Source of the DNA: Bdellovibrionales bacterium
Lineage (GTDB): Bacteria > Bdellovibrionota > Bdellovibrionia > Bdellovibrionales > UBA1609
NCBI GenBank assembly: GCA_965261545.1
Contig: CBDHDF010000011.1
Coordinates: 128,001 to 192,000, forward strand
Reading direction: 5' to 3'
Length of the DNA stretch: 64,000 bases
This document shows, piece by piece, positions 1,680 to 60,987 of this stretch; the stretch's first letter is position 1; the number at the start of each line of letters is the position of its first letter. Under the pieces are notes generated by a model. It was not told the DNA's origin. It did no database searches and worked only from the letters and a program-made list of their open reading frames with translations. The translations under genes and the position numbers were made by a program.

Positions 1680-2033
1680 ATGAGTCAAAATAACATAATA
1701 AAACTAACCAAAGGAGGGGCAAGCCATGTGCGAATGTCTCCATCTGAGTATGACAGAATCAAAAAAGATAGTGAAACATCTGGGAAATCCATTCCTGACC
1801 TTTTGAGAGAATCTTATTTCAGTCAACCTCCAAGAAAAGTGCTTGTCGGCAGATCTGATTTAGCTATTTTGAGAAAAGATTTAAATAGAATTGGAAATAA
1901 TCTCAATCAAATTGCCAGAAGGCTCAATGTTGGTCTTATGCATGGATGGAGTGACAAACTGGATTCCGTCTTGGAACAATTTGAAACCCTAACGAATCAA
2001 ATTTACTACGGCTATGGCGTACATAAAAGTTAA
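1680..2033 (+). CDS. mobC: Relaxosome accessory protein MobC
   Basis: LNRIGNNLNQIARRLN signature; AAGGAG RBS; overlaps the relaxase start. Confidence 0.9.
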   Translation: MSQNNIIKLTKGGASHVRMSPSEYDRIKKDSETSGKSIPDLLRESYFSQPPRKVLVGRSDLAILRKDLNRIGNNLNQIARRLNVGLMHGWSDKLDSVLEQFETLTNQIYYGYGVHKS

Positions 2034-3915
2034 ATGGAGGAAGGAGACTCCCAAGGGGAGAGAACTTTCAGCGAAAGACTATGAGAAATATTTACTTAAA
2101 GAAAGAGGAGCTGAGACTGTGACCCATTGCTATCACTGCCTTGAGGGAAGGTCTATTCAACAATTTGAACGTATTCAAGCCCTCTATGGGAAAAACAAAG
2201 CCCGCAGAGGTCAAAGTGTCAATGTGGCTTTTGAGGTGATTCACAGTTTCAGTCCTGAAGAAAGTAGGATTGTGCCTGCGGGGAAGGTCAATCTCATGGG
2301 GGTGACATTGGCAAAACGCTACTTCCCAGACCATGAGTTTGTTGTGGTCACTCATACGGATACCAACAAGACTCATAATCACATCTTGGTCAATCCAGTG
2401 AATGAAAAGACAGGGAAAAGAGATATAACCGACCAAAAAAAACATCTCTACAACCTTCGAACCATTGCTAATGACATTTCAAGAGAAAATGAGCTTTCTA
2501 TCATAAGGCCCACGGGAAAAGAGAAGGCTAGAAATATCCCACAAAAGGTTAAAGAGATTCAACGTAGGGGTGGCCAGTCTTATCGTTTGGACCTTTTCCA
2601 AAAAGCCGATTTTGCCAGAAGCTATGCGACAAGTTTTGATGAATATGTGAGCCTTTTAAACGAACTCTCTGTCAAGGTGGCCATCACTGAAAAGACCATT
2701 ACCTATCATTATGAAGGACATGAAAAGGGAATCAGAGGCAAGAAACTAGGTGCCAACTATGATAAATCGGGCTTGATGGAGAAGTTCAAATCCAATGATG
2801 AGTTGTTTCTAAAACAGCCTCAAGTAAGGAGCAAAATTAGAGATGGAATCAGCAATTTCAAAGATGGAAAAAGAGATTCTTTGGGAGCTTCAAGCCTATT
2901 ATCAATGTTTGGAGGAAATGCACAAAAACTCAATGAAAAAGATTACAAATCTTATACGAAAAGTGATCGTCGTGCTCATAGGACTCCTCTTCCTTCAAAC
3001 GATACTCTTAGTAATTCTATTATACCTATGAGTGAGATAAAAAGAGCCTCAAACAGTGACATTCTGGATTACTGCAAGAAACACAATATAGCCTGCATAG
3101 AAAACAAAAAGGGGGAAACGACTTTAAAGGGACGAGAACACGTTGTCATCCATGGAAATAGATGGACGAACACAAAGAACAAAACCACGGGTTCACTGAT
3201 TGAGCTTGTAAGCCTCCATGAAGACATAAGTTTTTTGGGAGCTATTGCAAAGATCACTGGCAACCAAAATCTTTCCCTTCTTGAACAGCACTTTGGGGAG
3301 GTCAAAAAACCCTACAAGTCCTTTCATATCCCCAAAATAAAAACAGAGTCGCCACACGTTGCAGAAGCCAAAATTAAGCAATTCTTTAGGCACCACAAAA
3401 TCAACGAGGGGCTGGCCGATGATCTTTTCAAACAAAAAAGAGTGCAGATCGATCAAAAAGGCGGCATCTGGTTCTATTCTGATGAGGATCAAAAAGAGGC
3501 TGTCCAGTACACACTGGCCTCGGATAACAGTTACAAGGCTCAATACCACGGGCGACAAAATACTCCATTGATGGAGCCCTCCGCCCATGGGAGTCGTGTC
3601 ACTGTTTATACGGATTTTCTTCACTTTCTGAAGGCTCATGGGAAAAAGGCATTGAGTGGAAAGTCAAAATCCTCTCTTGTCTTGAGAGGCTTGGATGAAC
3701 AAGCTTTTCACATTTTTCTAGCGACAAGGCCACAAATCAAAAGCCTTGAGTTTGTTGACCCTGAAAATAAGGGGCAACAAACCAGTAAGAAAAACCTTTC
3801 TGACAGGAAGGATTTTATGGATCGCCAGAAAAAGCAGCTTGAACCCTTTGATATCTCTGTCTCAACTATTTCCATGGAAAAGGCAATGGCAAGGGATCGT
3901 GGTTTAAGCATATAG
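2014..3915 (+). CDS. MOBP-type relaxase with C-terminal primase-like (DUF3991/Toprim-like) extension
   Basis: Motif II (EVIHSFSPEE) and 3H motif THTDTNKTHNH; C-terminal DILDYC...GSLIELV...SFLGAI region resembles primase-associated domains. Confidence 0.85.
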   Translation: MAYIKVKWRKETPKGRELSAKDYEKYLLKERGAETVTHCYHCLEGRSIQQFERIQALYGKNKARRGQSVNVAFEVIHSFSPEESRIVPAGKVNLMGVTLAKRYFPDHEFVVVTHTDTNKTHNHILVNPVNEKTGKRDITDQKKHLYNLRTIANDISRENELSIIRPTGKEKARNIPQKVKEIQRRGGQSYRLDLFQKADFARSYATSFDEYVSLLNELSVKVAITEKTITYHYEGHEKGIRGKKLGANYDKSGLMEKFKSNDELFLKQPQVRSKIRDGISNFKDGKRDSLGASSLLSMFGGNAQKLNEKDYKSYTKSDRRAHRTPLPSNDTLSNSIIPMSEIKRASNSDILDYCKKHNIACIENKKGETTLKGREHVVIHGNRWTNTKNKTTGSLIELVSLHEDISFLGAIAKITGNQNLSLLEQHFGEVKKPYKSFHIPKIKTESPHVAEAKIKQFFRHHKINEGLADDLFKQKRVQIDQKGGIWFYSDEDQKEAVQYTLASDNSYKAQYHGRQNTPLMEPSAHGSRVTVYTDFLHFLKAHGKKALSGKSKSSLVLRGLDEQAFHIFLATRPQIKSLEFVDPENKGQQTSKKNLSDRKDFMDRQKKQLEPFDISVSTISMEKAMARDRGLSI

Positions 3916-5519: not shown

Positions 5520-7240
5520 GGGTATATCCGAGTTTCTCAACAGAAAATGGGCCTAATTTCGACGTTGCAGAATTACCGCATTAAAAACCAAGAAAATAAT
5601 TCAATTTCCATGATTTATCCCCCTCATTACTTTACCCATAACAAAACCATGGTTTAATCTCTTAATTTACTTATTGGAAAATAATACAGGAGATGCCATG
5701 GTCTTGAATAAGTTTATTATAAAGATGTTGAAATTATCATTCTTAAAAGTGACTTGGGTTAAATTTAAAAATCGAAATCAAGAACTTCACTTAGGGGTTA
5801 AACCCCATAAGAATGGCTGCCGCTGTCCTCATTGTGGACGCCGCTGTAAGATACTTAGATGCTTAGAAGAAAGAGTGTGGCGAGATATCGTCGTGTGCGG
5901 TACCCCCATTTATTTCCATTATTCTCCGAAGGAAGTTCTGTGTCCCACTCATGGTCGTATTATGGAGAGAATTCCTTGGGCCGACCACTTCAGTCGAGTC
6001 ACCTATCGTCTGGAACTAACAATTCTGACCCTGACCAAGCAGATGACCCAAAAAGCCGTTTCAGAGCTTGTCAAGATACCCACATCCACCTTATCTGATC
6101 TTATTCATCGAATCATCCACAGGGAACGAGATGGTCACAAAATTCGTGGTTTGGAGGTCATTGGAGTCGATGAAATTTCTTATGCTAAGGGAAGGAAGTT
6201 TATTACCTTGATTTACGACATGAAGAAAGGCTGTGTCGTTTGGATTGGAAAAGGTAAGGGTAAGGAGACAATAGACTCCTTTTTTACAAAGGAACTCAGC
6301 CAATATCAGCGAGACAAAATTAGAGTGGCTTGTTGTGATATGGCTCAAGGCTACATCTCCTCTATCAAGGAGCATTGTAAGAATGCTACTCTCGTTTTGG
6401 ACAAATTTCACATTATTCAATCCCTCAACAGGGCTGTGGATGAGGTGAGAAAAGAAATTTGGAGAGATGCCTGCAAGAAGGACAGAAAGGCTATTAAGGG
6501 AACTCGCTGGTTGATAGCCTACAGTTCATCCTCTCGTAGTAAGGCCCAAACTCGTAAAATTAACCTCATGGAGAAATCTAACAATAAAATATTCAGAGCA
6601 TGGCTGCTTAAAGATAATTTTGAGCATTTCTGGGATTATGTGAGTCCAGGTCATGCTGCGAATTTTCTGAATGCCTGGATCACTCGTGCCTTAAGATCAC
6701 GCATTGATTCTATGAAAAAGTTTGCCTTGATGCTCAGGAAGCACCAAGAAAATATTCTTTCCTTCATTAAAGATCCTGTCACAAATGCCAAGGCTGAGGG
6801 AATCAATCGCCTTCTAAAGATCATAAAAAATCGGGCTTCAGGATTTAAGAACCTACAGGGTTTTGAGAATATGATTTACTTGTGTGCTGGGGATTTGGAT
6901 ATTGTTGGAAGTTTCCCCAAGCGTTTTTGTACATTATAGTTTTTATTGTCGATCAACATTTCTTTTTCCAATTCACCTCCCCATACTAACTCCGCCAAGA
7001 TGAGTCAGTTATCCACAGACTCATCCATGGCGACGCTGCGGCTATGGCCCTCGGAGCCACAATAAAGCAGCGCTGCTGTGGGTGAGTCTTGTGGATAACG
7101 GCGGCTCTCCACACAAGTGATTTGGTAGCCCTGTCCTCCGTGTTTTTATGTACAAATCTTAGGAATAACCTGTACATCCAGTTTTTAGCTATTTCCCTAG
7201 GGAATTTGGACTTTAGGCTCCGAGAAACTCGGATATAGCC
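5520..7240 (+). mobile_element. ISL3-family IS
   Basis: TIRs GGGTATATCCGAGTTTCTC / GAGAAACTCGGATATAGCC; 8-bp TSD GATAAAAT (5512-5519, 7241-7248). Confidence 0.93.
5698..6939 (+). CDS. ISL3 transposase
   Basis: CPHCG zinc finger, IGVDEIS, CCDM, LDKFH, TNAKAEGIN motifs. Confidence 0.93.
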   Translation: MVLNKFIIKMLKLSFLKVTWVKFKNRNQELHLGVKPHKNGCRCPHCGRRCKILRCLEERVWRDIVVCGTPIYFHYSPKEVLCPTHGRIMERIPWADHFSRVTYRLELTILTLTKQMTQKAVSELVKIPTSTLSDLIHRIIHRERDGHKIRGLEVIGVDEISYAKGRKFITLIYDMKKGCVVWIGKGKGKETIDSFFTKELSQYQRDKIRVACCDMAQGYISSIKEHCKNATLVLDKFHIIQSLNRAVDEVRKEIWRDACKKDRKAIKGTRWLIAYSSSSRSKAQTRKINLMEKSNNKIFRAWLLKDNFEHFWDYVSPGHAANFLNAWITRALRSRIDSMKKFALMLRKHQENILSFIKDPVTNAKAEGINRLLKIIKNRASGFKNLQGFENMIYLCAGDLDIVGSFPKRFCTL

Positions 7241-8170: not shown

Positions 8171-8572
8171 ATGGTTGATCCACAAACTATTTTTAACAAC
8201 CTGCCCCCAGAGTCTTCTCCCTTTTGGAATGAGCAATCTCGGAGTCTGGATTACCAACGAATTGCTAAAGACTTTTTTGATGTGGCAGATAGGAAAGAGA
8301 AGATAAGCCAAATCCTTGGTGTAAGTAAAAGCTCTGTACGGTATGACCGTAAGATGCCAAGGGAGGTAAAGGAGTTGTTGCAAGATACTGTAACCATTTT
8401 TCACTTGGTCTATACTCATTTTGGCGAGGATTTTGATAAAACAAAACTTTGGTTTGAACTACCTAACCCTATGATCGGAGAAAACATCACCCCACAACAG
8501 ATGATTTATATTGGGCGACAGCAAAAACTCCTTCAAATTGTTTTTGCAGCGACTCAAGGTGACCGACCCTAG
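8171..8572 (+). CDS. Xre/MbcA/ParS-type antitoxin
   Basis: HTH-like ISQILGVSKSSV plus C-terminal WFELPNPMIG..ITP motif; coupled to the RES gene. Confidence 0.8.
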   Translation: MVDPQTIFNNLPPESSPFWNEQSRSLDYQRIAKDFFDVADRKEKISQILGVSKSSVRYDRKMPREVKELLQDTVTIFHLVYTHFGEDFDKTKLWFELPNPMIGENITPQQMIYIGRQQKLLQIVFAATQGDRP

Positions 8573-9462
8573 TGAGAAGAAAAACGCTACCAATAGGAAG
8601 TTCCGATCCAGAAGTTATGAACCTAGTTCAATCTTCCGATTCAACAAAACAGATTAAAGAAAAGATTGCATTTAAGTACAAGTTTTATTCCGAACTTGTT
8701 CAAAAGAGGTCTGTACTTCAGAAAGAAATCAAAGCATCTCTTGTGTCAAAAATACAAGTGTTTCCTTTTAATGACTGGTGGAGGTTAACTACAACGAAGT
8801 ACTCCATGGACCCTATAAATGCTAGTGGGAGTTACAAAAATCCAATTGGAGGACGCTTCAATGTTGGGCAGATTGATACGACGAATACTGATAAATTCGT
8901 TACATTTCCAGCCCTTTACTTGGCAAAAACAAAGCAAACAGCTATAAAAGAAGTATATCCTCCAATAAAAAAGAAATGCTCACTTTCATCAATGGAGTTG
9001 ATGTTATCTAGCAAAGAGGCAAATGCTTTCTTTAAGGTGAGAGGAGAGGTCCGTGTCTTGGATATTGATAGCCCCAACAATCTAACTGCTTTTGTAAAGG
9101 TCATTAAAAAAATAACGATTGACGCTGACACTGAAAAGGAGGCTCTTAGGCTATCAGAACCTAACCCTCAGACAGTACAAACAGTGAAGGAGCTTAAAAG
9201 GGCTCTATATTCTACTAATTGGAAAAACTTCATAAGTATTTATGATGACCCTCCTCCTTCGCAAATTTTTGGGCAAATTGTAAGGTCTTCTGGAATTGAG
9301 GGGTTATTATACTCATCAATTCATTCTCAAAATAAGCATGATTGTAAGTGCTTAGCTTTATTCTTAGAAAACTTTGAAGACTCGGCTTCTTTTGTAGAAG
9401 TGATTGATTCTGACATTAGCAAAAAAAGAATAGATCAGAACACGTTTAAAGAATTCTTCTAA
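8572..9462 (+). CDS. RES-domain toxin
   Basis: GGRFN, PALYLA...TAIKEV, SQIFG and IEGLLYSS motifs. Confidence 0.82.
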   Translation: MRRKTLPIGSSDPEVMNLVQSSDSTKQIKEKIAFKYKFYSELVQKRSVLQKEIKASLVSKIQVFPFNDWWRLTTTKYSMDPINASGSYKNPIGGRFNVGQIDTTNTDKFVTFPALYLAKTKQTAIKEVYPPIKKKCSLSSMELMLSSKEANAFFKVRGEVRVLDIDSPNNLTAFVKVIKKITIDADTEKEALRLSEPNPQTVQTVKELKRALYSTNWKNFISIYDDPPPSQIFGQIVRSSGIEGLLYSSIHSQNKHDCKCLALFLENFEDSASFVEVIDSDISKKRIDQNTFKEFF

Positions 9463-13887: not shown

Positions 13888-14115
13888 ATGGAAAATATCG
13901 ATATCACTTTAATTTCTAGAATATGTACAATCTTATCTTTTCCGATAGCTCTCTTATCTTTTCTGATAGCCCTCTTATCCCACTGTACTTCAAGAAAAAA
14001 TAAAAGAGATATTGTAAACATAAAAAGCTCTATAAAGAACATAGACAGCTCAGCAACTAATATCTCAGTTCGTGGAAATAAGAATACTACAGCAGGAAGA
14101 AATATTGATGAATAA
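13888..14115 (+). CDS. Small single-TM protein with N/G/T-rich C-terminal tail; first gene of the ABC-3C operon
   Basis: TAAGGA RBS before ATG 13888; hydrophobic ICTILSFPIALLSFLIALLS; stop overlaps next ATG by 8 nt. Confidence 0.7.
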   Translation: MENIDITLISRICTILSFPIALLSFLIALLSHCTSRKNKRDIVNIKSSIKNIDSSATNISVRGNKNTTAGRNIDE

Positions 14116-14668
14116 TAATACGATAAATATAAATGGCAACAATAATATTGTTGCCGGTGGAGATATAATAGTAAAGAACATCCAAAGATTACCTTCTCTA
14201 CTAGGTTCAATACTACCATCCTTAATTGAAGCCATAGATACTTTTGATGAGTCTAAACAGCCTCCATCTAAGCCATATGAAATTGATAACAAGATAAATT
14301 TTAATAATTTATACGTTTATAAAAATTCGATAGAAAAATATGGTCTATTTGGAAATATTATAGATTCAATAATGGAAAATTTAGATACGTCAAAGCCAAT
14401 GTCGAAGAAGAAAATTTTTAGATATCTTGAAAAAAAATATGTAGATACAATAGCTAATTTAAACCTGAATAACCAATCTAAAATTGAAATTATAAAAATC
14501 AAGTCCGACGATATATTCAAAAAAACCATGTCGCAAATTAACGATGACCTGAAGGGAGCTGATACCGGAGATGTATCAATGGAAGACCTGGAAATTTGTA
14601 TTTTAGTTATTACATGTTATGGATTCATAAATTGTAAAATAATGGAGAATGTACCTGATGATTATTGA
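14108..14668 (+). CDS. ABC-three-component CTD protein (LmuA-like) with no enzymatic effector domain
   Basis: PYEIDNKINFNNL and C-terminal F..CKIME motifs resemble ABC-3C CTDs; precedes the middle component and ATPase. Confidence 0.7.
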   Translation: MNNNTININGNNNIVAGGDIIVKNIQRLPSLLGSILPSLIEAIDTFDESKQPPSKPYEIDNKINFNNLYVYKNSIEKYGLFGNIIDSIMENLDTSKPMSKKKIFRYLEKKYVDTIANLNLNNQSKIEIIKIKSDDIFKKTMSQINDDLKGADTGDVSMEDLEICILVITCYGFINCKIMENVPDDY

Positions 14669-14897
14669 TAGAGATGTTCATCCAGATAGAAATCTTTTCC
14701 ATATAGGGGCAAGAGTACTTCAATTAATTAAAGAACATCAATTTGGTGTTATACCAATGATGGATTTGTTTGAAAGAACTAAAAATGTATTAGAGTGCTC
14801 TATTTCATTTGATGATTTCATACTTTCTCTCGATTGGCTCTTTATATTAGGGACAATAGATTCTAATGAAACAGGGGATATTATACGATGTTTTTAA
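14658..14897 (+). CDS. ABC-three-component middle component (MC6/LmuC-like)
   Basis: HPDRNLFHIGARVL...FILSLDWLFILGTI pattern; ~79 aa, overlapping both neighbours. Confidence 0.75.
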   Translation: MIIDRDVHPDRNLFHIGARVLQLIKEHQFGVIPMMDLFERTKNVLECSISFDDFILSLDWLFILGTIDSNETGDIIRCF

Positions 14898-16570
14898 GCA
14901 GACTCATTGTTCAAAAAGGTGAAAGAATAATTCAAGATATTCCCTTCAAGAGAGGGTTAAACCTAATCATAGATGAAACTCCAACTGCTAATAAAAAATC
15001 TGGAAATAATGTTGGAAAAACTACTATGGTTAGAGTCATTGATTACTGTTTAGGTGGGAAATGTGAAAAAATATATAAAGATCGAGAAACTAACACAGAA
15101 AACAAAGAGGTTAAGAAATTTCTACAATCTTCTCAAGTTCGAATTAAGTTGTTTTTAGAAGAAGCAAAGGATGGTCAATTACACGAAATTATTCGTTCAT
15201 ATGGAGAAAAATCAATCATAAATGGAGAGGAAAAAACAGAAAATGAATTTAAACAAGATCTGAATCAAATATTATTTCGATTAGATGTAAGTAAACCTTC
15301 ATCAAGAGAATTACTTGGTAAATTTATTCGAACTGAGAATTACCAGTTAGATAATATCTATAAATTCTTATATCCTCAAACTAAAAGACCAAAAGATGTT
15401 TACGAATACATCTATCTGTACCTATTTGGATTTCAAAATCATAAGGCTACTATAAGAAAAAATGATCTTAATGAAAATATAAAAAAAATAATTGATCGTG
15501 TTAAAGCTCTATCTCCTTACAAAGAAGGTGCTTTGACTCAGATTATTCGGGCTCTTGACACAGATATTAATATATTTGAGAAAAAATTAAAAAATTTTGA
15601 GATATCAAACTCACATAAAGAAAATCTTGAATCTTTAAAAGAAATAAGGGGAGAAATTTCTCAGCTATCTGTAAATATAAGCAATATAGATATCCAAATT
15701 AAATTAAATAATCAAACACTTAAGAATCTTGAAAAGACAAGATCATCTATTGATCCAAAACTTCTTCACAATATATATGATCAAGCAAATGCTTATGTCG
15801 AAACTCTTCAGAAAAGCTTTGAGGAGGCTCTGGATTTTCATAATTCAATGATTAGAAATAAAATGAATTTTGTTAATAAACATTTGTCATCTTTGATTCA
15901 AAATCGAAACAAAATGAAAGAAAGAATGGATATATTTTTTGAAGAGGAAAGAAAATTTCTAAGGGAATTATCTAGCAAAGGTGCTTTGGATGATTTAATT
16001 AAATGCAACCAAGAACTCTCATCACTAAAAGAGAAGAGGGGAGAAAAAAATGGCATTTTAAAAGAAAAAAAAGAATTAGAAGAAGAGCTAAACCAATACA
16101 ATGAAGAACTAAAAAACATAAATAATAAAATGTTGGAGTTTAAAGGCCGATTAGACAAAGAACTTGAAGATTTTAATACCCTATATAGAAAAATAACAAA
16201 GGAACTATATGACGAAGAATATATTTTTTCTTGTGAAATTGATAGAAATAGTAGGTATGATTTCTCATTATCAACCATGCATGGAACTGTTGGATCAGGG
16301 AAGAAAAAAGGACAGATATTAGCCTTTGATTTAGCGTATTTAAACTTTTTAGAGAAAAAAGAAGCAAATATATGTAGATTTCAAATCAATGATCGCCTTG
16401 AAGAGGTTCATTTAAACCAATTAAAGAGAGCTTTTGAGATTGCAAATAATATTGATGGGCAATTCATTGTTCCGATTCTTAGAGATAGAATTGAAGCCTT
16501 GGGTAAAGACTATATTCAAGAAAATAAGATCATTACTCTTTCACAAGAACAAAAGTTTTTTAAATTATAA
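14888..16570 (+). CDS. SMC/SbcC-like ABC ATPase (DUF2326, LmuB-like)
   Basis: Walker A GNNVGKTT, long coiled coil, GSGKKKGQILAFDLAY signature, INDRLE Walker B-like segment. Confidence 0.85.
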   Translation: MFLSRLIVQKGERIIQDIPFKRGLNLIIDETPTANKKSGNNVGKTTMVRVIDYCLGGKCEKIYKDRETNTENKEVKKFLQSSQVRIKLFLEEAKDGQLHEIIRSYGEKSIINGEEKTENEFKQDLNQILFRLDVSKPSSRELLGKFIRTENYQLDNIYKFLYPQTKRPKDVYEYIYLYLFGFQNHKATIRKNDLNENIKKIIDRVKALSPYKEGALTQIIRALDTDINIFEKKLKNFEISNSHKENLESLKEIRGEISQLSVNISNIDIQIKLNNQTLKNLEKTRSSIDPKLLHNIYDQANAYVETLQKSFEEALDFHNSMIRNKMNFVNKHLSSLIQNRNKMKERMDIFFEEERKFLRELSSKGALDDLIKCNQELSSLKEKRGEKNGILKEKKELEEELNQYNEELKNINNKMLEFKGRLDKELEDFNTLYRKITKELYDEEYIFSCEIDRNSRYDFSLSTMHGTVGSGKKKGQILAFDLAYLNFLEKKEANICRFQINDRLEEVHLNQLKRAFEIANNIDGQFIVPILRDRIEALGKDYIQENKIITLSQEQKFFKL

Positions 16571-18795: not shown

Positions 18796-18999
18796 ATGCT
18801 CTTTGACAATTTAGCTTGGTTAACAACTGAAGAAACTGCACGCTATCTTCGCAAAAGCGTCAATGCCATCAGGATTTTGGTATATCGCAAAATTCTGAGA
18901 GCAAGGAAGTTTAGGCGAAGGCTGTATTTCAAAAGAGAAGAGTTGGAGATGCTCATTGAAACCTCACAACATATGGGAGGTTACAAATGGCAATTTTAA
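18796..18999 (+). CDS. Excisionase-like HTH protein, copy 3
   Basis: Near-identical to copies 2 and 4. Confidence 0.75.
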   Translation: MLFDNLAWLTTEETARYLRKSVNAIRILVYRKILRARKFRRRLYFKREELEMLIETSQHMGGYKWQF

Positions 19000-20150
19000 C
19001 TTATGAAAAAAATGGAAAACAGCTTTTCCGAGTCTATGTTCAGGGGCGAGGAAAGGTAGACACTTCTATAAGGGTCCAAAAGAATAAATTTAATATAGAG
19101 ACTCTTAAGGATGCGTGCAAAGAAGAGAAAAGGCTTATTAGAGCTGTTTCAGATGAGATCAATAAGATCGAAGGACGAGGGCTGAAATGGAGGGATATCA
19201 TTTATCGCTGGGAAACCTATGCTTTGCAAGGACTTCTCGGAGATAAACAAAAAGACCCCCATTACATCAAGGACCATGTAAACCGACTGCTCCATTATAC
19301 AAAGCTTTGGCTTGACTGCGTGGCTTCCGAACTCACTAAGGGGGATGGAAGACTTGTCTTGAGTCAGGCGAAAGAAAGTGGAGGCAAGGAAGGTTCACTA
19401 AAAAAAATCAAATCCTCTGTAAATGTAGTCTTCAAGTGGGCTATTGAGGAAAAGCTGGTCGTTGGTGTTCACTCAAGCCCTACTGAGGGAGTTAATGTTT
19501 CAGACAAGGCGGAGAAGGTTCCTAAGATTCTCACCTTAGAAGAGATTAAAACTCTTCTCAAAGGAGCTAAAGAAGAGCAGCATCCTTGGTATCATATTTG
19601 GTCTTTTGCATTTCTTACTGGAATGAGAAGTGGCGAATTGAAGGCATTGCAGTGGAAGGATATTGATTTTGATCGACAAACAATATTGGTCTCCAAGTCC
19701 TACAGCCATCGTAAGCGAGTGATAAAATGCACTAAAGCTGGTTACTGGCGAAACGTACCCATTTCCAGTGACCTTTTGAAGATTATCACCGAGCTTCAGA
19801 AAGATGGTCACTGTGACCCTGAAGGCTTTGTCCTTCCAAGGCATGGGACATGGACCAATGGTGAAGCTGGAAAGGTTTTGAGAGCATTTCTAAAGAAATA
19901 TAACATAAATCAACATGTTGTATTTCACACACTCAGGGCTTGCTTTGCGACTCACATGTTAGCTCATGGGGTAAATCAAGCCACCGTTATGAAAATCGGT
20001 GGCTGGAGAGACATTAAGACTTTCCAGATCTACCTTCGGCTTGCTGGGGTTGAGGTCAAAGGCGCAACAGAGGTGTTGCAAGTGATTCCAACTATTGACT
20101 CTCTCGTTCCTAAAAACAATGTGATCGACTTTCCTTTGGCGCAAGGTTAA
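18987..20150 (+). CDS. Tyrosine integrase copy 3 (intact)
   Basis: All catalytic motifs present; one amino-acid difference seen versus copy 4. Confidence 0.93.
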   Translation: MAILTYEKNGKQLFRVYVQGRGKVDTSIRVQKNKFNIETLKDACKEEKRLIRAVSDEINKIEGRGLKWRDIIYRWETYALQGLLGDKQKDPHYIKDHVNRLLHYTKLWLDCVASELTKGDGRLVLSQAKESGGKEGSLKKIKSSVNVVFKWAIEEKLVVGVHSSPTEGVNVSDKAEKVPKILTLEEIKTLLKGAKEEQHPWYHIWSFAFLTGMRSGELKALQWKDIDFDRQTILVSKSYSHRKRVIKCTKAGYWRNVPISSDLLKIITELQKDGHCDPEGFVLPRHGTWTNGEAGKVLRAFLKKYNINQHVVFHTLRACFATHMLAHGVNQATVMKIGGWRDIKTFQIYLRLAGVEVKGATEVLQVIPTIDSLVPKNNVIDFPLAQG

Positions 20151-20572
20151 GAACATCTATGAAACAGTAAAATAATTCTTCAGTTGAGAGGTGCCTTTGG
20201 CATTTCTCAACATTTCTTAAATTTGCTAATCATTGCTAAATAGGTTTGTATAACCTATTGAAATTATTGGATATTCGGAGATTTTTATTCTCCGCTCCAA
20301 TAACAATGGGCAGGAACTTGAACCTCACCCATACTATCCTGTTCTCTACGAAAATCCATAAAGCTCTCCTCCATTTTTTCAGTCAGAATAATCACCGGGC
20401 AATACTTAAGTACAAAAACTAAATACGGAGAGAGGGGTGGCTTTCGCCACGCTCCGCGGGCTCAGCCTTTCCCTCTCCTTCCTTCTTGCCTTGTGCCCAG
20501 CCTGACGGCTGGCATGCTGAGGCTCGCTTCGCTTCGCCTGGAAAAGGGTAAAAGTGTAAAAGGGCAAAGGGG

Positions 20573-22438
20573 TTACATAGGCGTCCTCACAAGGCGGAAA
20601 CCGACACCGTACCAGCGAAAATCAGGCCGATCGAAGGAACGATAGGAAGAGCGCAGGAAGCGAGCGCCGTCGTCCCAACCGCCACCACGCATAACACGGG
20701 TAGAGCCATTTTTCGGACCTCTAGGGTCTGTGACAGGACCAAAATCATACCAAGGTTTAGAATACTCCTCCTCCTCATACCAATCTTCGACCCACTCCCA
20801 CACATTTCCATGAACATCATAAAGCCCTAGGGGATTGGAGCTCAACAATGCCACGGACCTTGATTGTCGGCTTTGTTTGCCAGATCCAGAGTTCCCCCTA
20901 TACCAACCATAGTTTTTAAGTTCTGAAGGATTGTCACCAAAGGAATAGGCTGTTTTTGTGCCTGCTTTTGCACCACCCCTGGCTGCAAATTCCCACTCCG
21001 CTTCCGTAGGCAAACGGTATTCATATTTGTCACCGTGGGACTCTCTCGCCCTGCGATTGTACTCATTTATAAATTCTTGGACGTCCTCCCAAGACACTCT
21101 CTCCACAGGATGATCGGCGCACATTGAAACTCCATCTTGTTCCATATAACTTTCTGGGCAATGCTCTTTTTCTTGGAATTTTGAAGGATTTGTCCCCATC
21201 ACAACAAACCACTGCCATTGAGTCACCTCTGTGGTGCTTATTTCAAAGGGCTTAGAAATTGTTACTTTATGAGGGGTCTCATCTGAATCTCGACCTTTTT
21301 CAGTCTTAGGGCTCCCCATGGTGAAAGAACCTGCGGACACGGGGACAAAACCATATTGAGACAAGCTTCGTCTCACATAGGCTCTCAACACACTGTATTC
21401 AATACCTGTTTTGTCTTTTGAATAAAGACGTGTATTCATCCGAGGGCTTCCTATCACTTCATCCACCAAGCTTTCAATGACTCCGTTAAGAACTCTCACG
21501 GCAGAAGCAAACTCCTGCTTGCTGTCAATTTTTGAGTCAAGTTCTTCAAGGTTTTTTCTTAAGGCAGCTAATTGTTTTATAAGAGATCCTGCATTTTCTT
21601 CTCCATAGGCGTCTATGAACTTTTCTATGCCTGAGACCTTTTCCTTGGCCTCATCTCTTTGTCGAACGAGGTCATGGACACTGGGAGCTTCCATGCCCTC
21701 TTTATAGGCTTTGACCTGCCGAGCCTCTTTGGGACTTAGGGTAGGAAGCTCATTAACTCTTAGCACGGATTGAAGGCGACGCTTAAAGTCACTCACGGGG
21801 ACTTTTTTTATAAGTGCACCATCGGGCCGCTGGCAATCACTCACCTCATTTATAACAGAACCCACTTCACACTCTTGGATCACAATCTTATCTTCTCCTT
21901 GGTGGCTTTTTTCTTTATAAAATAAAATCACATCACCATCGGGGCCTACAAGATTCACAGAAGAGGGCCTTCTTTTGTCACCCCTCTTATCACTATCACC
22001 TCTTTTCGTACCATGAGGACGAGATCCACGAGGTCCGCTGTGGGAACCATGGCCACCATGGGAACTATAATGACCTTGGAAGCCAGATCCATGGGGTAAC
22101 TGGAGTCGGCCTCCTGATTTTAGGGTGATTCGCCTCATCTTTTCTTCATGCTTACGAACCACAGCCTTGTAGGAGGCGGTACGGTCTTCTGGTGTAGATG
22201 ATGTAGATAGAGGTAGAGGTGCAGGTAGAGGTGCAGAAGAGTCCCTTGATGGATTTGTATGATTCTGATTCTGGTTCTGATTCAGACCTTTGTCTTGACT
22301 CTCTCGGCTCTCTTTGCCCTCTTGGCTCACTCGGCCCTCTTTGCTCAAAAAGGCACATGAAGGCAGAACCATCAACAGTGACAATAACCACAAAAGCAAT
22401 AAAGGTCTCATGGACCTTATGGGTTTCATTCCTTTCAT
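20573..22438 (-). CDS. Lipoprotein with C-terminal FGE-sulfatase (CLec-fold) domain; candidate DGR target
   Basis: Signal peptide ending LMVLPSC; FTMGSP, EVTQ, HPVERVSW, RLPTEAEWEFAARGG, GLYDVHGNVWEW, RGGGW, GFRLV; AAAGGAG RBS before ATG 22438. Confidence 0.88.
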   Translation of the reverse strand: MKGMKPIRSMRPLLLLWLLSLLMVLPSCAFLSKEGRVSQEGKESRESQDKGLNQNQNQNHTNPSRDSSAPLPAPLPLSTSSTPEDRTASYKAVVRKHEEKMRRITLKSGGRLQLPHGSGFQGHYSSHGGHGSHSGPRGSRPHGTKRGDSDKRGDKRRPSSVNLVGPDGDVILFYKEKSHQGEDKIVIQECEVGSVINEVSDCQRPDGALIKKVPVSDFKRRLQSVLRVNELPTLSPKEARQVKAYKEGMEAPSVHDLVRQRDEAKEKVSGIEKFIDAYGEENAGSLIKQLAALRKNLEELDSKIDSKQEFASAVRVLNGVIESLVDEVIGSPRMNTRLYSKDKTGIEYSVLRAYVRRSLSQYGFVPVSAGSFTMGSPKTEKGRDSDETPHKVTISKPFEISTTEVTQWQWFVVMGTNPSKFQEKEHCPESYMEQDGVSMCADHPVERVSWEDVQEFINEYNRRARESHGDKYEYRLPTEAEWEFAARGGAKAGTKTAYSFGDNPSELKNYGWYRGNSGSGKQSRQSRSVALLSSNPLGLYDVHGNVWEWVEDWYEEEEYSKPWYDFGPVTDPRGPKNGSTRVMRGGGWDDGARFLRSSYRSFDRPDFRWYGVGFRLVRTPM

Positions 22439-22655
22439 TTTTTGATCTCCTTTCATTTTTTGCTTTGGCGGCACTTTACTTAACTCTTGCCCTCTTTAGC
22501 CATTGACTTGAAGCCATAAACTCACCCACTATCTGAACAACCTTAGCCTCATTGACTCAAGCCTACCTACTTGACTTTACTTATGTCACTGAGTGATTGT
22601 CGATACAAAATAGTACAAACTTGAATTCCTAGACTTTGCGAGGACTCCACTGACA

Positions 22656-23634
22656 TTGCCACCAAAGAAAACCTCAGAAAAAAGAAAACAACAGTCTCAG
22701 TCCCATAATGCTCTATTCAATGAAACTTTCCTGAATGAGAGATATTGCCTAGACATTTTCCGTCTTGTCTTGACGACACAGGAGTTTAAGCTCTTTAACT
22801 GGAAAACTCTCAAACCAGAAATAACTGTCTTTACAGATGAAGAGGGCAATGAGCGGCGCATTGACCTTTTATTCTCAGTTCAAGTCAAGGGGTCCCAAAA
22901 ACGGGTACGTCTTTTTTTTCTGCTCGAACACAAAAGTCATCAGGATTCTCAAGTTCTCCAACAAATTCTGAGGTACCAGACCCTTGTTTACAATCGCTGG
23001 AATTATCCGGTCATTCCCATACTGGTCTATCACGGACGACAAAAACACTGGAGTAAAATCACGAAATGGTCCCCTGAATTTTCAAGACTCTCTGGATGGA
23101 CTCACTCCCGTTTTAAGACAAAAATTTGGGAAAAATATCCTCAATTTTCGTTGTAAGTTGTTGAATATCCATGATATAAACCTTTACCGTGGAGTTGGCA
23201 GAAATTTGCTTTCTAGGCCGATTTTGCTTATAATGAGTAGTATCTGGAAGCTTCGCCATGAGACCATTGTGGAGCTGTTTCAGATGGGTACAAACTTGGG
23301 TGAGAAGGATCAAAAGTTCCTTATTCAAAAGGCGGTGGATTATATCCACCGAAACGATTCAAATTTCACGCTAAGTGTGCTCAGTAAGATTGAAAAAGAA
23401 AGTATCGAGGAGGAGCAAAGAGTTATGTCAGCATTGCAATGTTCTTTGGATGAAGCTGAGGAAAAGGGAATGAGAAAGGGCCTTAAGAAGGGCCGTGAAG
23501 AGGGTATTAAGGGCATTAAAAAGAGCCGCGAAGAAACAGCGTTACGAATGATTCAAAATGGCTTTGAGGCAAAAACGATTTGTCTATGTACTGGGCTTAC
23601 TTCCAAAGAAGTGAAGGAACTCTCAGAAAAATGA
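22656..23634 (+). pseudogene. Rpn-family PD-(D/E)XK nuclease (YhgA-like), frameshifted near 23050-23070
   Basis: HNALF, RIDLLFSV, LLEHKS, PVIPILVYHG in frame 1; EKGMRKG..EEG..CTGL C-terminus in frame 2. Confidence 0.82.
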
Positions 23635-23957
23635 CAAAAACTCCTTAAATGCTCTAAAAACACTATTTCAGAATTTCCCTTGTTCATAACTCAAAAGGAA
23701 ATCCCTTCTGTTGCTGGCTTCTTCAAATGAAGGTTTTCGATCAGTATTTGTCACAAAATCCATTTTATATTTTGTGGCAAATCGGCTTCCCATGTGCTCT
23801 TCATGGAGCTAATTCTTTCGATTTTTCTTAACTTATAACTTGTCTAGTAAAGAAGTGATTGATATTATTGCAAACAACTGCCAGGAAGAAGATGGCAGGG
23901 ATCAGAGTGTAAGTTAAAAATAAGTCACGAGATAAGTAACGGACTTGCGACTTTGAT

Positions 23958-24161
23958 ATGCTCTTTGACAATTTAGCTTGGTTAACAACTGAAGAAACTG
24001 CACGCTATCTTCGCAAAAGCGTTAATGCCATCAGGATTCTGGTATATCGCAGAATTTTGAGGGCAAGAAAGTTTAGGCGAAGGCTGTATTTCAAAAGAGA
24101 AGAGTTGGATATGCTCATTGAAACCTCACAACATATGGGAGGTTACAAATGGCAATTTTAA
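23958..24161 (+). CDS. Excisionase-like HTH protein, copy 4
   Basis: Near-identical to copies 2 and 3. Confidence 0.75.
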   Translation: MLFDNLAWLTTEETARYLRKSVNAIRILVYRRILRARKFRRRLYFKREELDMLIETSQHMGGYKWQF

Positions 24162-25312
24162 CTTATGAAAAAAATGGAAAACAGCTTTTCCGAGTCTATG
24201 TTCAGGGGCGAGGAAAGGTAGACACTTCTATAAGGGTCCAAAAGAATAAATTTAATATAGAGACTCTTAAGGATGCGTGCAAAGAAGAGAAAAGGCTTAT
24301 TAGAGCTGTTTCAGATGAGATCAATAAGATCGAAGGACGAGGGCTGAAATGGAGGGATGTCATTTATCGCTGGGAAACCTATGCTTTGCAAGGACTTCTC
24401 GGAGATAAACAAAAAGACCCCCATTACATCAAGGACCATGTAAACCGACTGCTCCATTATACAAAGCTTTGGCTTGACTGCGTGGCTTCCGAACTCACTA
24501 AGGGGGATGGAAGACTTGTCTTGAGTCAGGCGAAAGAAAGTGGAGGCAAGGAAGGTTCACTAAAAAAAATCAAATCCTCTGTAAATGTAGTCTTCAAGTG
24601 GGCTATTGAGGAAAAGCTGGTCGTTGGTGTTCACTCAAGCCCTACTGAGGGAGTTAATGTTTCAGACAAGGCGGAGAAGGTTCCTAAGATTCTCACCTTA
24701 GAAGAGATTAAAACTCTTCTCAAAGGAGCTAAAGAAGAGCAGCATCCTTGGTATCATATTTGGTCTTTTGCATTTCTTACTGGAATGAGAAGTGGCGAAT
24801 TGAAGGCATTGCAGTGGAAGGATATTGATTTTGATCGACAAACAATATTGGTCTCCAAGTCCTACAGCCATCGTAAGCGAGTGATAAAATGCACTAAAGC
24901 TGGTTACTGGCGAAACGTACCCATTTCCAGTGACCTTTTGAAGATTATCACCGAGCTTCAGAAAGATGGTCACTGTGACCCTGAAGGCTTTGTCCTTCCA
25001 AGGCATGGGACATGGACCAATGGTGAAGCTGGAAAGGTTTTGAGAGCATTTCTAAAGAAATATAACATAAATCAACATGTTGTATTTCACACACTCAGGG
25101 CTTGCTTTGCGACTCACATGTTAGCTCATGGGGTAAATCAAGCCACCGTTATGAAAATCGGTGGCTGGAGAGACATTAAGACTTTCCAGATCTACCTTCG
25201 GCTTGCTGGGGTTGAGGTCAAAGGCGCAACAGAGGTGTTGCAAGTGATTCCAACTATTGACTCTCTCGTTCCTAAAAACAATGTGATCGACTTTCCTTTG
25301 GCGCAAGGTTAA
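24149..25312 (+). CDS. Tyrosine integrase copy 4 (intact)
   Basis: All catalytic motifs present; nearly identical to copy 3. Confidence 0.93.
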   Translation: MAILTYEKNGKQLFRVYVQGRGKVDTSIRVQKNKFNIETLKDACKEEKRLIRAVSDEINKIEGRGLKWRDVIYRWETYALQGLLGDKQKDPHYIKDHVNRLLHYTKLWLDCVASELTKGDGRLVLSQAKESGGKEGSLKKIKSSVNVVFKWAIEEKLVVGVHSSPTEGVNVSDKAEKVPKILTLEEIKTLLKGAKEEQHPWYHIWSFAFLTGMRSGELKALQWKDIDFDRQTILVSKSYSHRKRVIKCTKAGYWRNVPISSDLLKIITELQKDGHCDPEGFVLPRHGTWTNGEAGKVLRAFLKKYNINQHVVFHTLRACFATHMLAHGVNQATVMKIGGWRDIKTFQIYLRLAGVEVKGATEVLQVIPTIDSLVPKNNVIDFPLAQG

Positions 25313-25470
25313 GAACATCTATGAAACAGTAAAATAATTCTTCAGTTGAGAGGTGCCTTTGGCATTTCTCAACATTTCTTAAATTTGCTAATCATTGCTA
25401 AATAGGTTTGTATAACCTATTGAAATTATTGGATATTCGGAGATTTTTATTCTCCACCTCCATAACAATG

Positions 25471-54915: not shown

Positions 54916-55993
54916 CCCTTTGGATAGTTCAGATAGTTCAATAAGGAACAACAATTTAAAAATGAAGCACAACTATTTACATAAGATAGACTGGCTGGAT
55001 GGGGAGAAAGTTCGGCCTTATGTATTTTTTCGTCAAGGAAACGAAGTGAAAGACCCTGGAAGTCGCTTTCATTGTGACTGGTTTCCCTTTGAACCCATGG
55101 GTTTGGATTCTCTAAAGATAAGTAGCCTTGATTTCTCCGAACATATTCTCAATATGGAGCATAGAGCCTTTCGTAGCTCTCAAATGCCCATACCCCGGTG
55201 GGCCTTTTATGATTGTGCATTGATGCCGGGTTTTGTTTCGGGCTTTGCCCATAGAACCTCTATGTTATCCAAGGAATGGATAGAAGCCTTGGGAAATCGT
55301 TCTCAGATTGAGTGGACTCCCATTTCTCTTTTTATCATTATCCCCACCATGGGTGAGGGAGAGTGGATGGCTCATAATCTTTGCTCTATGAATACTTTGA
55401 TAAAGAAAGAAAGCCGTTACTATGGGTTGGGATTTTTAACCAAGGCTTTTGGTCTTTGGTATGCCAATGTTGAAACCTGTTGTGGTGTGACTCAGTGGAC
55501 TAGCCCCGCTCTTCGTCTCCATGCCCACTATGGAGATGGAAATTTTATCATCTTACACTCTAGTTCACGATTACGCTCATACCTTGTTAGGCGCCAATTA
55601 AAATTGGCCATTTTTAGAAGCCGTCGCCAATGAAAAACGGCCAGTTGATGATGTACTGATTTAGTTATTCTTCGTTCAGAGTTTAGTCAAGTGTCTTTAT
55701 TTTGCTCATCATTTAACTCGGACTATGCCACAAGATTCTGAGGAATGATTTTCTGCCCACCACTTTTGGCATGACCCCAAATGCATCCTTCAGCCCTATG
55801 GCAGAGGTAAATGGAGTATTTTTCAGGATTCCTTGGCGCAGCTAATGTCTAAAGCTCCGCGAGAGTGACGAGCAAATAGTACGGTAAAAGCCAGTTATCC
55901 ATAAATTTATCCATGGCGACACTGCGGCTGTGACCCCGATGTCTAGCAACGCAGTGCTGCTGTGGATAAATTTTGTGGATAACTGGCGAGTTC

Positions 55994-57892
55994 CCTGAAA
56001 TCCCTAAAAGTTGTAACTAGGTGTAGGACTTAAGTCCTGATTATTGTCTGAGAAGGCCTTCACTTTGATTAAGAGATTGTCATCTCTTCAAAAGCATAGT
56101 TACAATATTAACGATGTCATACACTTTTGAGCAAAAAAATAAGGGAAAAACCTATGTCTATAAAGTTGAAAGCTTTTGGGACAAGGAAAAAAAGCAGGCC
56201 AGGCAAAAACGCATCTACCTTGGAAGAAAGGATGAGTTTACAGGTCAAATTAAGACCAAAAGAAAAAAGATTCCCATAGGCTCCTATAATGTGGGAGCCT
56301 TATTTTTCTTAGAGAAAATATGCGAACAACTAAATCTTCTAAAAACATTGTCTAAAATTTATCCAGATAATTACGAACATTATTTGCATTTAGCTTTTTT
56401 TAAAATAATCAAAAGAGAGCCCTTTTATCTTTACGATATGTGGTGTCAAGAAGCTTATGTTTCAAAGAAAAATTTTATGTCGTCACAAAAAATAAGCAAT
56501 CTCTTATGTGATCTTGGGAGAGATCAAAAAAAGATAGAATCTTTCTTTAGCGAATGGATAAATCAAGTGAAGGGTTCTGGTACGGTAATGTTTGACATCA
56601 CATCCTTTTCTTCCTACTCTATGAATAATGAATTTTTAGAGAAAGGTTACAACAGAGATGGAGAGAATCTCGAACAAATAAACTTAGGTCTGATAAGTAG
56701 GAAATCTGAAGACAATAAAACTCATACGCCTATAGCGTACAGAATCTATCCTGGAAGTATACCGGATGTCAAAACTTTATCGAATATTATTGAGATCATA
56801 ACAAGTTATAAATTAGATTTAGATTGTTTAGTTATGGATAAGGGTTTTTCTAGTGTAGAAAATATTAAGGGACTGCATCGTAAGGAATTGAAGTATTTGA
56901 TACCCATGAGTTTTAGAACAAAACTCTCAAGAGAGCTTGCTGTGGCTTTAAATGAGAAAATAAAATCTCCATCATGCTCTTTTACTTTTAATGAGGAAAT
57001 TTATTCGCATTGCAAAGAATCAATAAAAATCGGAGGATTTGATTGTACGGCTCATATTTTCTTAGACAAAGAAAGAAGGGTTTATGAGGAATCTGTGTTA
57101 ATGAAAGAGTTGCTTGATTTTATGAAACTCTTTCTTGAGAAAGATTTGAAATCAGAAGAACAAGCTAGTTCCTATATGAAAGAAACTTTAGGAAATAAAA
57201 AAAGGTTTCTCAATATCTCTGATTGCACTCCATTTAAGATTTCTTTAAATGAAGAAAATATTAATGAAGAATCTTCTACGCTGGGTATTATGATATTAAT
57301 TACAAATAGTCATGATTTAAAGAAAACAAATATATTGAGTTTATATCGAAACAAAGATATCATTGAGAAAGTATTTTTCTCATTCAAGCATGATATTAAT
57401 GGAAGGAGAAGTCGAGTTCATTCTCTCATGAATATGAGGGGAAGCATCTTTATTAATTTTCTCTCTTTAATTTTAATTTCACATATTGATACTGTTATGA
57501 AAGATAAGAAGTTATATAAAAAAATGTCTAAAATAGAAATTTACAAAATGATGGACCGATTAAAATTTTATGAATTAGCTACAGGTGATCTGATGCTTGG
57601 AGAGCTGTCTAAAAAACAAAAGGATATTTTTTCAGCCTTCCAAATAGATGGGCTTCCCAAGACAAAATGATGTTTTTTATCTGTTTCAAATGTGACGGTG
57701 GCTGTGGCTACCACTATGCCTCATCTATCCAATGGGGACGAAGAGGACCTTTCGCAGCAAATTCTTATGAATCATATTAAATATATTAATACTATTAAAC
57801 CTCTCAAACCGTTGACAGCAGCCAATTCCATAGGAAGAGAGGAAAGTTAACGCAATACATTAAACCTAGTTACAACTTTTAGGGATTTCAGG
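55994..57892 (+). mobile_element. IS1634-family IS
   Basis: 29-bp TIRs CCTGAAATCCCTAAAAGTTGTAACTAGGT; 6-bp TSD GAGTTC. Confidence 0.9.
56114..57670 (+). CDS. IS1634 transposase
   Basis: FDITSFSSYS, GYNRD, YPGSIPD, MDKGF, YRNKDIIEKVF. Confidence 0.9.
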   Translation: MSYTFEQKNKGKTYVYKVESFWDKEKKQARQKRIYLGRKDEFTGQIKTKRKKIPIGSYNVGALFFLEKICEQLNLLKTLSKIYPDNYEHYLHLAFFKIIKREPFYLYDMWCQEAYVSKKNFMSSQKISNLLCDLGRDQKKIESFFSEWINQVKGSGTVMFDITSFSSYSMNNEFLEKGYNRDGENLEQINLGLISRKSEDNKTHTPIAYRIYPGSIPDVKTLSNIIEIITSYKLDLDCLVMDKGFSSVENIKGLHRKELKYLIPMSFRTKLSRELAVALNEKIKSPSCSFTFNEEIYSHCKESIKIGGFDCTAHIFLDKERRVYEESVLMKELLDFMKLFLEKDLKSEEQASSYMKETLGNKKRFLNISDCTPFKISLNEENINEESSTLGIMILITNSHDLKKTNILSLYRNKDIIEKVFFSFKHDINGRRSRVHSLMNMRGSIFINFLSLILISHIDTVMKDKKLYKKMSKIEIYKMMDRLKFYELATGDLMLGELSKKQKDIFSAFQIDGLPKTK

Positions 57893-57919
57893 GAGTTCCT
57901 TCCCCAAAAGTGGGGATCT

Positions 57920-58702
57920 CTAATGAACTTCTTTGGTTGAACTTTCCTCTTTGCTCTGTTTAGACTTGGCTTTTGCCGATTCGGTTCTCCAACTTTCTTT
58001 TCCTTCAATGTTGAGGGTTTCACAGTTGTGAATGATTCGATCAACAGCAGCAGCGGTGGTAATAGGGTTAAGAAACACCTTATCCCATTCAGAGTATGTT
58101 AAGTTTGTAGTGATCATGAGACTTTTCCTTTCATATCGCTGAGATATGAATTGAAAGAAAAGATCTGCCCCCTCTGTGCAGGAAGCTGTATAGCCAAGTT
58201 CATCACAAGCAATAAGATCAAAACGGTCTAATTTCTTAAAAAGAGCATTCAATGAGAGTTCTTTCTTGCTTTCACGCATTGTTTCAATAAGTTCATGAGT
58301 GGTGACCCATAAACATCGATAGCCTTGTTCACAGAGTGAACGAACTAGGGACATGGCCAAATGACTTTTCCCCATTCCAAAGCTTCCGTAAAACACAACA
58401 TTACAGGCTTTTCTGACCCACTCTCCCTCTGCCATCCAATTAATTTGCTGAGCTGTCACTCCCGTTCTTTTCTGGAAGTTATAAGTTTGGAGTGATTTAA
58501 GTTGAGGAAGCTTGGCCCCCTTAAGCAATCTTTTCACTCTCTGGGAATGCTTGTCAGCAAGCTCATTTTGAACGAGTATACCTAAATACTGTTCATACGT
58601 CTTTTTTGTTTTTTCGGCAACTCTAGCCGTTGCAACATATTCATCCGCCATCGCTGGAAGTCGGAGTTTTTTAAGAGAACCTATAAGTTCTTCGTGATTC
58701 AT
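57920..58702 (-). CDS. istB: IstB ATPase
   Basis: Identical protein to 40358-41140. Confidence 0.92.
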   Translation of the reverse strand: MNHEELIGSLKKLRLPAMADEYVATARVAEKTKKTYEQYLGILVQNELADKHSQRVKRLLKGAKLPQLKSLQTYNFQKRTGVTAQQINWMAEGEWVRKACNVVFYGSFGMGKSHLAMSLVRSLCEQGYRCLWVTTHELIETMRESKKELSLNALFKKLDRFDLIACDELGYTASCTEGADLFFQFISQRYERKSLMITTNLTYSEWDKVFLNPITTAAAVDRIIHNCETLNIEGKESWRTESAKAKSKQSKEESSTKEVH

Positions 58703-60168: not shown

Positions 60169-60987
60169 AAGATCCTCCTCATTGCTAACCTTTTGAGTTG
60201 CAAGAGGGAGGGACTCTGTGAGCTTAGTATCTATATCAGAAGAAGAGACTTCATTGTCTAGTATTTGAACACTCCCTGAAGATTGGTCACTTTTCATTGG
60301 CGACAACCTCCATATTGAAAGTGGGACATTTTAATTGGCGACGGCTTTAAGGGAAGCCTGTCTTTAGAAAGAAATTCCATGAAAATTGAGGCAAATGTTG
60401 GAATCTTGTGGAATTTAAATACTTTAGAAAATGGGCACACCTAAACAGGCTTTTCTTGACTATATATTTAACCTCATTGAAATCCAGAAACAGTCTACAA
60501 ATGACAAATATGGAACCTGAATAGGCTGTCATGGAAGGACTCTCCAACACGGAGCCCCTTTCCAGGTCGACAAGAACCCAAAAGGAGTTCTTATCAGCTC
60601 GGAGCCTTTTTATGAGTAATATCAATTGATTATATGCGTCTCGGTTGACAATGCCAAAAATCACCATAGGTCCTCCTCTGAAAAGTGGCCACTTTTCATT
60701 GGCGACGGTGGGGCATTTTAATTGTCAGCTAACATACCTTGACTTATCGCTTGAAGGTGAATGCAAACTATTGGGAGTCTTTTTTTACTGGCCAATTTCA
60801 TTCAGGTTTTACCAGAAAGTATCATAAACAGAATTTTGATCTAAACCATCAATCAGCGTCGAGTTTGATGAATCTTCAAGAAAAGATTGAGATGGGTGAG
60901 GGGCCTTTTTATCTCCATGCTTCAGACATGAGTCGCCATAAATTGGAGGGAGCACTCCCCCTTTATCAAATGGCATGAAAAAAAGCC

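Follow-up and report, generated by a model that had tools for sequence, protein, structure and literature searches.

The window analysed here is a 64-kb stretch of contig C11 of the genome under study (G000:C11:128001-192000; other contigs are named in the same way). It contains an intact DGR target gene on the minus strand, and the features in and around this gene are listed in Table 1. The open reading frame begins with GTG, and the probable start of the gene is the ATG at 22438, which is preceded by GGAG. Promoter and terminator predictions around the gene showed no excess (3 against 3.4 expected and 3 against 2.9 expected, respectively). The encoded protein is composed of a predicted lipoprotein N-end, a low-complexity linker, a beta/helical domain and a C-terminal FGE-type C-type lectin (CLec) domain. 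At the lipobox position many homologues have LSSC, LPSC or WGC, and some have no lipobox at all. The middle domain consists of a beta-sheet with a conserved cysteine pair, C202 and C214, followed by long helices, as judged from the alignment and from a model with pLDDT values mostly between 62 and 92. A Pfam search of residues 1-374 found no domain, and thus no NTPase, TIR or protease effector, and a protein atlas search with residues 168-372 gave no match. As the Foldseek matches listed were FGE-fold proteins only, the middle domain is left without a structural assignment. It was detected in 11 of 251 genomes of the order. One genome that consists of a single contig (G027:C1; L032 and others) has seven middle-domain matches, some of them in tandem, and no Avd match listed.

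Table 1. Coordinates of the target gene, its repeat and the surrounding element features (window positions)
Feature	Position	Strand	Remarks
MobC and relaxase genes of the same composite island	1680..3915	+	
Inner xis-like HTH gene (18796-18999), tyrosine integrase (18987-20150) and att end	18796..20299	+	
First 21 codons of fumC, cut at element junction	20297..20359	-	whole fumC behind sister target on C7
32-nt relic of core HRDC gene	20394..20425	-	joined via 11-nt microhomology TATTTAGTTTT
Predicted compound stem-loop, inner CGC-GNA-GCG (20458-20450)	20430..20477	-	overlaps GAAA hairpin 20450-20437
Hairpin CCAGCC-GTCA-GGCTGG	20497..20512	-	real, specific to this genome
Pyrimidine tract after stop	20540..20572	-	T-rich or pyrimidine tract also behind repeats of G034 and G124
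DGR target gene, intact	20573..22474	-	633 codons from GTG; ORF list, Pfam, model
IMH-like unmutated 3' end, last 22 nt	20583..20604	-	fixed T-to-G difference from template at 20585
Variable repeat, 128 nt	20583..20710	-	ungapped alignment to template C4:60446-60573
FGE-sulfatase/CLec domain, residues 375-630	20585..21352	-	PF03781, E 3e-48
Middle domain of no known family, ~residues 170-370	21365..21967	-	alignment and model
Predicted lipoprotein signal	22355..22438	-	basic N-end, hydrophobic stretch, L-P-S-C40; read by eye
Rpn/YhgA-like unit, putatively co-captured with target	22649..23641	+	split over two reading frames in window copy
Outer xis-like gene (23958-24161), intact tyrosine integrase (24149-25312) and att end	23958..25462	+	

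An earlier reading of the sequence alone had proposed an FGE/CLec domain at the C-terminus, and the Pfam match bears this out. FGE enzymes have a catalytic cysteine pair near the C-terminus. Cysteines of the target protein are found solely at residues 40, 202, 214, 439 and 452, and the pair expected of an FGE enzyme near the C-terminus is not present. The best PDB match is TvpA (2y3c), with E values of 6e-26 by sequence and 1.6e-17 by predicted fold. An ordinary FGE-family enzyme in which a codon bias arose by chance would explain the strong family matches; nevertheless, with no cysteine beyond residue 452, where the catalytic pair would be, and with a template match that is adenine-specific, this has practically no probability, and the template repeat described below refutes it.

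The 3' end of the target ORF is a stretch of 45 codons with no third-position A (codons 589-633, starting at 20710), one codon longer than the 44 sense codons counted in the sequence-only reading. Third-position A occurs in 173 of the 589 codons upstream in the same ORF, which gives P ~2e-7 for 44 codons in a row without it. Genome-wide, only 3 of 1666 ORFs of at least 300 codons end in such a run of at least 30 codons, and all three are copies of this target gene. A BLASTN search of the repeat against the whole genome, the check that had been suggested for this region, located a template copy at C4:60446-60573, directly after an RT gene. Between template and window repeat, 21 of 33 adenines are changed and only 1 of the 95 other bases (P 1e-14). 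The NNY-type codon pattern arises because 30 of the 31 template adenines that precede the IMH-like end sit at codon position 1 or 2. Nineteen codons of the window repeat are variable, allowing ~2.7e18 possible peptide sequences. Window 20710-20583 is a true DGR variable repeat.

In a DGR, the RT and Avd copy the template RNA with errors at adenines, and the resulting cDNA then takes the place of the repeat in trans. The core on C4 has the order target (split by an IS), HRDC gene, Avd, RT and template. The RT has an open frame of 346 aa with YMDD at 225, and the template begins 11 nt past its stop; the Avd scores 108 bits with NF033474 (cut-off 80) and has a pI of 9.7, and the HRDC gene matches PF00570 (E 8e-21). 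The adenine-specific template repeat, the intact YxDD RT beside the template and the Avd identify a DGR. The HRDC gene in the core, FGE-type CLec targets with a C-terminal repeat, and non-adjacent targets would assign it to the Treponema type (Architecture C). At its start, C4 also carries a second core, whose frameshifted RT runs off the contig, and another template may therefore exist. Genome-wide there are 30 reverse-transcriptase matches, many of them identical copies, amid very large IS families. The variable region had been called an orphan, which is correct for the 64-kb window and wrong for the genome, since template, Avd and RT are all on C4. A genome with no template or RT, and the same codon bias in non-DGR FGE genes, would have spoken against a DGR; both template and RT are present, and among ORFs of at least 300 codons such a terminal run is found only in target copies.

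By SucD, the host groups with Bdellovibrionales: 14 of the best 120 matches carried an organism name, and all 14 were Bdellovibrionales, Bdellovibrionaceae or Bdellovibrio, a placement that comes from one marker and is not a phylogeny. The Avd passes the cut-off in 8 of 251 genomes of the order. Two of the genomes, G034 and G124, have the same core layout, with RTs 62% and 73% identical, respectively, and an RT search of named genomes returned one distant locus, 39% identical. For G124, 7 loci were compared, of at least 9 related proteins. This genome has at least 6 remote repeats, and the six examined show 16-24 adenine changes and one non-adenine change each. At the G124 core (L062:9001-9128 and 6626-6760), a TAG in the template corresponds to TGG (Trp) in the six remote repeats; the core repeat shares the TAG and also has frameshifting indels, as if a recent template mutation had been copied into the adjacent target only.

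Six repeats share the C4 template: the window repeat, two on C4, two on C7 and one on C2. Candidates at C10:751967 and C11:624096 are decayed relics with no intact target gene and were left out of the six. At the former site (L014, C10:751850-752010), a piece from the middle of the target gene has been joined to an old, diverged repeat; this relic lies immediately downstream of sucD, on the opposite strand. Each of the five non-window repeats has 12-16 adenine changes relative to the template, and three of the five also have small indels. When the repeats were compared pairwise, with gap columns excluded and counting the 31 adenines before the IMH-like end, all 15 pairs differed at 13-22 of the 31 template adenines and at 0 of the 95 other aligned bases. 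The 1.1 kb of DNA upstream of the repeats is only 91-97% identical among copies. The lack of non-adenine differences despite this upstream divergence indicates that, once the genes had diverged, a single template sequence served to rewrite all six repeats. With regard to the indels, the C2 repeat (L013, C2:788049-788176) has an in-frame 3-nt loss and a 3-nt gain, consistent with a contig of run X2, the C7:51k repeat has a compensated +1/-1 indel, and the C7:142k repeat has a 2-nt loss (L011, L012). P0002 ends in a short duplicated IGF/CGF stretch.

After the stop codon, the pyrimidine tract and two tetraloop hairpins described in the sequence-only reading are all present where it had placed them (20572-20540, 20512-20497 and 20450-20437). 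The proposal that the hairpins act as a homing signal fares less well. In phage DGRs, a GRNA hairpin with a 7-10 bp stem lies 4-34 bp after the repeat (PMC3240598, excerpt), and no hairpin of these dimensions follows the window repeat: the two named hairpins begin 71 and 133 nt past the repeat and have stems of 6 and 5 bp. Furthermore, the GTCA hairpin is disrupted in the C4:6k copy and lacking in G034 and G124, and of the 5 copies that retain the downstream region, 3 have a GAAA stem of just 4 bp. Short, distant and not conserved across copies or genomes, both hairpins were rejected as the probable signal. The compound-stem motif is kept after core targets in three genomes. Its inner helix is 93% paired and shows no covariation above shuffles, and one instance of the CGC-GNA-GCG motif, at C11:532126, lies away from any target. 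Within 400 nt of the diversified remote repeats of G124 the motif was absent at all six, and so the compound stem-loop is probably dispensable for rewriting; G124 therefore suggests that targets in this lineage are rewritten without a downstream stem-loop. Two G124 remote targets share 148 identical downstream bases, yet their repeats differ at 20 positions. Among the six G124 remote targets (L063-L068), three have near-identical downstream DNA and different repeats. The 3' end of the repeat is unmutated, and its T-to-G template-target difference is fixed in 6/6 repeats here and in 6/6 remote repeats of G124, with one non-A difference at the same place in G034. These features point to an IMH/IMH*-type end, which, with the adjacent T-rich tract, would be the better candidate for a cis signal.

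The earlier proposal of a remote DGR target carried as cassette cargo holds up, given the adenine-specific template differences, the RT and Avd beside the template, and the integrase units on both sides of the gene. Four xis-int units of one family are arranged in tandem in the window. The inner unit ends in an altered att end, TCTCCGCTCCA (20289-20299), that abuts fumC, and a public contig (record 1, run X1) bridges this int-fumC junction. The outer att end, TCTCCACCTCCA (25451-25462), has CCACCTCCA in common with the 3' end of tRNA-Cys, and the outer unit adjoins the right half of a DDE-type IS that is present in many copies. No tRNA genes were found inside the 64-kb window; the composite island begins at tRNA-Cys (C11:120370-120443), 7.6 kb before the window, and the left end of the element follows this tRNA gene. 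Integrase with att ends, together with an empty-site equivalent, points to a putative integrative mobilizable element. Relaxase and MobC are present, and no mating-pore family was found among the 35 window proteins scanned, a subset of the ORFs. The related integrase family has 7 matches in G124, and none was found in G034 with this query. Within 6 kb of the G124 remote targets, integrase fragments are present at 1 of 6 and relaxase fragments at 2 of 6; with integrase fragments near just one of them, the element route is not general.

Other cargo was observed between the integrase units. An ABC-three-component system (CTD10, MC6 and DUF2326 ATPase; window 14072-16570) is unique in the genome, and a two-gene unit with a RES-domain protein (window 8171-9462, RES gene 8572-9462) is also found on C10 at 93%. 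Window 54916-63228 repeats three pieces of the C7 sequence downstream of fumC, separated by IS copies, at 99.7-100% identity and in inverted orientation relative to the captured piece. Elsewhere in the genome, ~15 copies of a 1-kb Rpn/YhgA-like unit with sharp ends are clustered in 100 kb (G000:C2:279000-381000), and two tmRNA genes have the same tag peptide (G000:C2:48920-49277 and C11:894679-895034).

The left end of the element was found on C11, C2 and C8, and the right end, composed of target, Rpn, xis and int, was found in the window and on C2 and C5, amounting to three left and three right junctions. The three right-end copies have different neighbours. On C2, both junctions lie inside one IS, and the flanks are adjacent with offset 0 in 9 intact copies of that IS; this element copy contains the left end, IS copies and the module only. 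Likewise, 23 copies of another IS have the C8-left and window-right flanks next to each other. Between window and C2, the junction, xis, int and att sequences are identical (510/510 and 1313/1313 nt), and the flanks of the window gene show 0/297 and 1/150 differences from the C7:142k locus. The left (tRNA-Cys) and right (IS) junctions on C11 are not from one insertion, and recombination or a mis-join is therefore needed to account for them. It is conceivable that the multiple copies stem from strain mixing or mis-assembly of repeats, and that the element never moved the target within one genome. The contamination of 3.66%, the unpaired junctions on C11, C8 and C5, and the near-identical repetition of C7 sequence in the window fit this possibility. 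We nevertheless regard it as very unlikely, given that C2 has both junctions of one insertion on one contig, that public contigs show the int-fumC junction and also a different continuation (X1 record 1 and X2 record 9), and that different junctions in different strains would still imply movement of the element.

The explanation that we favour, with considerable confidence, is that a remote Treponema-type DGR target lies inside an integrase element that likely captured the gene beside fumC and re-inserted at three sites. The HRDC relic indicates that the target locus would descend from a duplicated DGR core, and the join between HRDC relic and fumC also precedes the whole fumC on C7. First, a DGR core would have been duplicated and trimmed, leaving a target upstream of fumC. 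A tRNA-Cys-targeting element may then have entered fumC at codon 21, using a CCA-like secondary site. Subsequently, the outer integrase end would have enclosed Rpn, target and the start of fumC, by way of either a recombined circle or tandem accretion, and the composite would have moved, with at least two further insertions. Finally, the repeat would have been rewritten again. The genome thus appears to keep the steps readable, from duplicated core through microhomology deletion and secondary-att capture in fumC to re-insertion with mapped junctions.

Rewriting probably went on once the gene had been captured. Any two of the donor-like, window and C2 repeats show 16-18 differences among the 31 template adenines and otherwise small indels only, which would mean that at least one of the element-borne copies was rewritten post-capture, unless the repeats came in by gene conversion. 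The alternative is a frozen passenger, in which the repeat was diversified before capture or via gene conversion and is no longer rewritten in the window. The body of the window gene is a mosaic of paralogues, and the repeat could have arrived by gene conversion without local retrohoming. Decay of other copies is in keeping with this: everything from 11 nt past the stop of the C2 target is replaced by an IS, the C5 copy is cut after ~84 codons, the core target itself is IS-split, and the genome is crowded with IS copies. However, the window allele is unlike every other copy (16-22 differences at the 31 template adenines), the window copy retains its open frame and full downstream region, and the non-adenine bases are identical in all copies despite 3-9% upstream divergence. 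We therefore consider a frozen passenger unlikely, and continued rewriting the better account. Contigs from four runs, which represent one sample and possibly the source of the assembly, were compared by reading the table by hand. In runs X1, X2 and X3 the core allele is seen again without change, which does not suggest a high present rewriting rate, and the C2 allele occurs in one run. Record 13 of run X2 (depth 2) has a repeat allele unlike all six assembled ones at template adenines and is not assignable to the window locus; the window allele is not among the run contigs compared, an absence that is uninformative.

With regard to function, the target may be a surface lipoprotein with a variable binding tip, for which recognition of prey or host surfaces would be the most likely role, a reading that we put forward tentatively. 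Bdellovibrio recognizes prey with chimeric fibres, one of which has a C-type lectin tip (PMC10769870, excerpt), and a DGR-diversified family of predicted lipoproteins in the same order would offer a second, testable route to prey recognition. A phage decoy or sensor appears less likely. For a tip diversified for defence and travelling as defence cargo, one can point to the ABC-three-component and RES genes of the same island and to clade 5 DGRs, which are proposed to diversify antigen sensors (PMC10907252, excerpt); the lack of NTPase, TIR or protease effector domains in residues 1-374 by Pfam, the predicted lipoprotein signal and the 4 of 7 target copies outside the element make such a role rather improbable. 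In E. coli, the position and orientation of a target alter DGR efficiency up to 44-fold (PMC12875486, excerpt), and moving a target could therefore tune its mutation rate. More speculatively, an integrative mobilizable element might serve as a shuttle for an RT-less, template-less DGR target, seeding copies of a hypervariable receptor around the chromosome and between cells, each re-diversified by the resident DGR at a rate set by its position, and so building a multi-locus prey-recognition repertoire in predatory Bdellovibrionales; we doubt that this scheme holds in full.

The mutator is of a known kind; what is new is the likely spread of a target by an integrative element, which we did not find in the literature searched. 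Remote targets are known, with 10 of 372 DGRs having 29 targets more than 100 kb away (PMC5758913, excerpt), and a DGR survey states that remote targets would be missed (PMC8144416, excerpt). In the portions of the literature searched we found no account of how remote targets arise, no Bdellovibrionota DGR and no integrase element carrying a target only, although the supplementary tables of PMC5758913 and PMC8144416 may list such cases. The DGR of Treponema denticola (TvpA, Architecture C; PMC4891356 and PMC5758913, both in excerpt) has in common with this one an HRDC accessory gene, FGE-type CLec lipoprotein targets (lipidation being predicted here), a C-terminal variable repeat and several remote targets per template. 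The present DGR departs from it in its Bdellovibrionales-like host, in its target-HRDC-Avd-RT-TR order, in an additional target domain of 200 residues that belongs to no known family, and in the three target copies at the end of an integrase element. In Thiohalocapsa PB-PSB1, DGR loci are likewise duplicated and disrupted by mobile elements, and targets without an RT are diversified in trans, but the movers named there are IS elements and MITE-like repeats, and the targets have been proposed to be sensors of conflict systems (PMC10907252, excerpt), whereas here a predicted lipoprotein gene is carried by a tyrosine-integrase element that targets a tRNA and whose junctions have been mapped. Integrative mobilizable elements (PMC5704250, excerpt) share with the present one a tyrosine integrase, relaxase, MobC, att at a tRNA 3' end, secondary sites, several copies per genome, and tandem composites formed by accretion and gene capture; the putative element described here differs in its run of four xis-int units from a single family and in carrying a DGR target. 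Finally, the LdtA DGR of Legionella also places a variable surface lipoprotein (predicted here) on an integrative element, an ICE (according to the excerpted PMC5758913). There, the whole DGR is on the ICE, whereas here the target alone rides on the element and RT, Avd and template remain on the chromosome.
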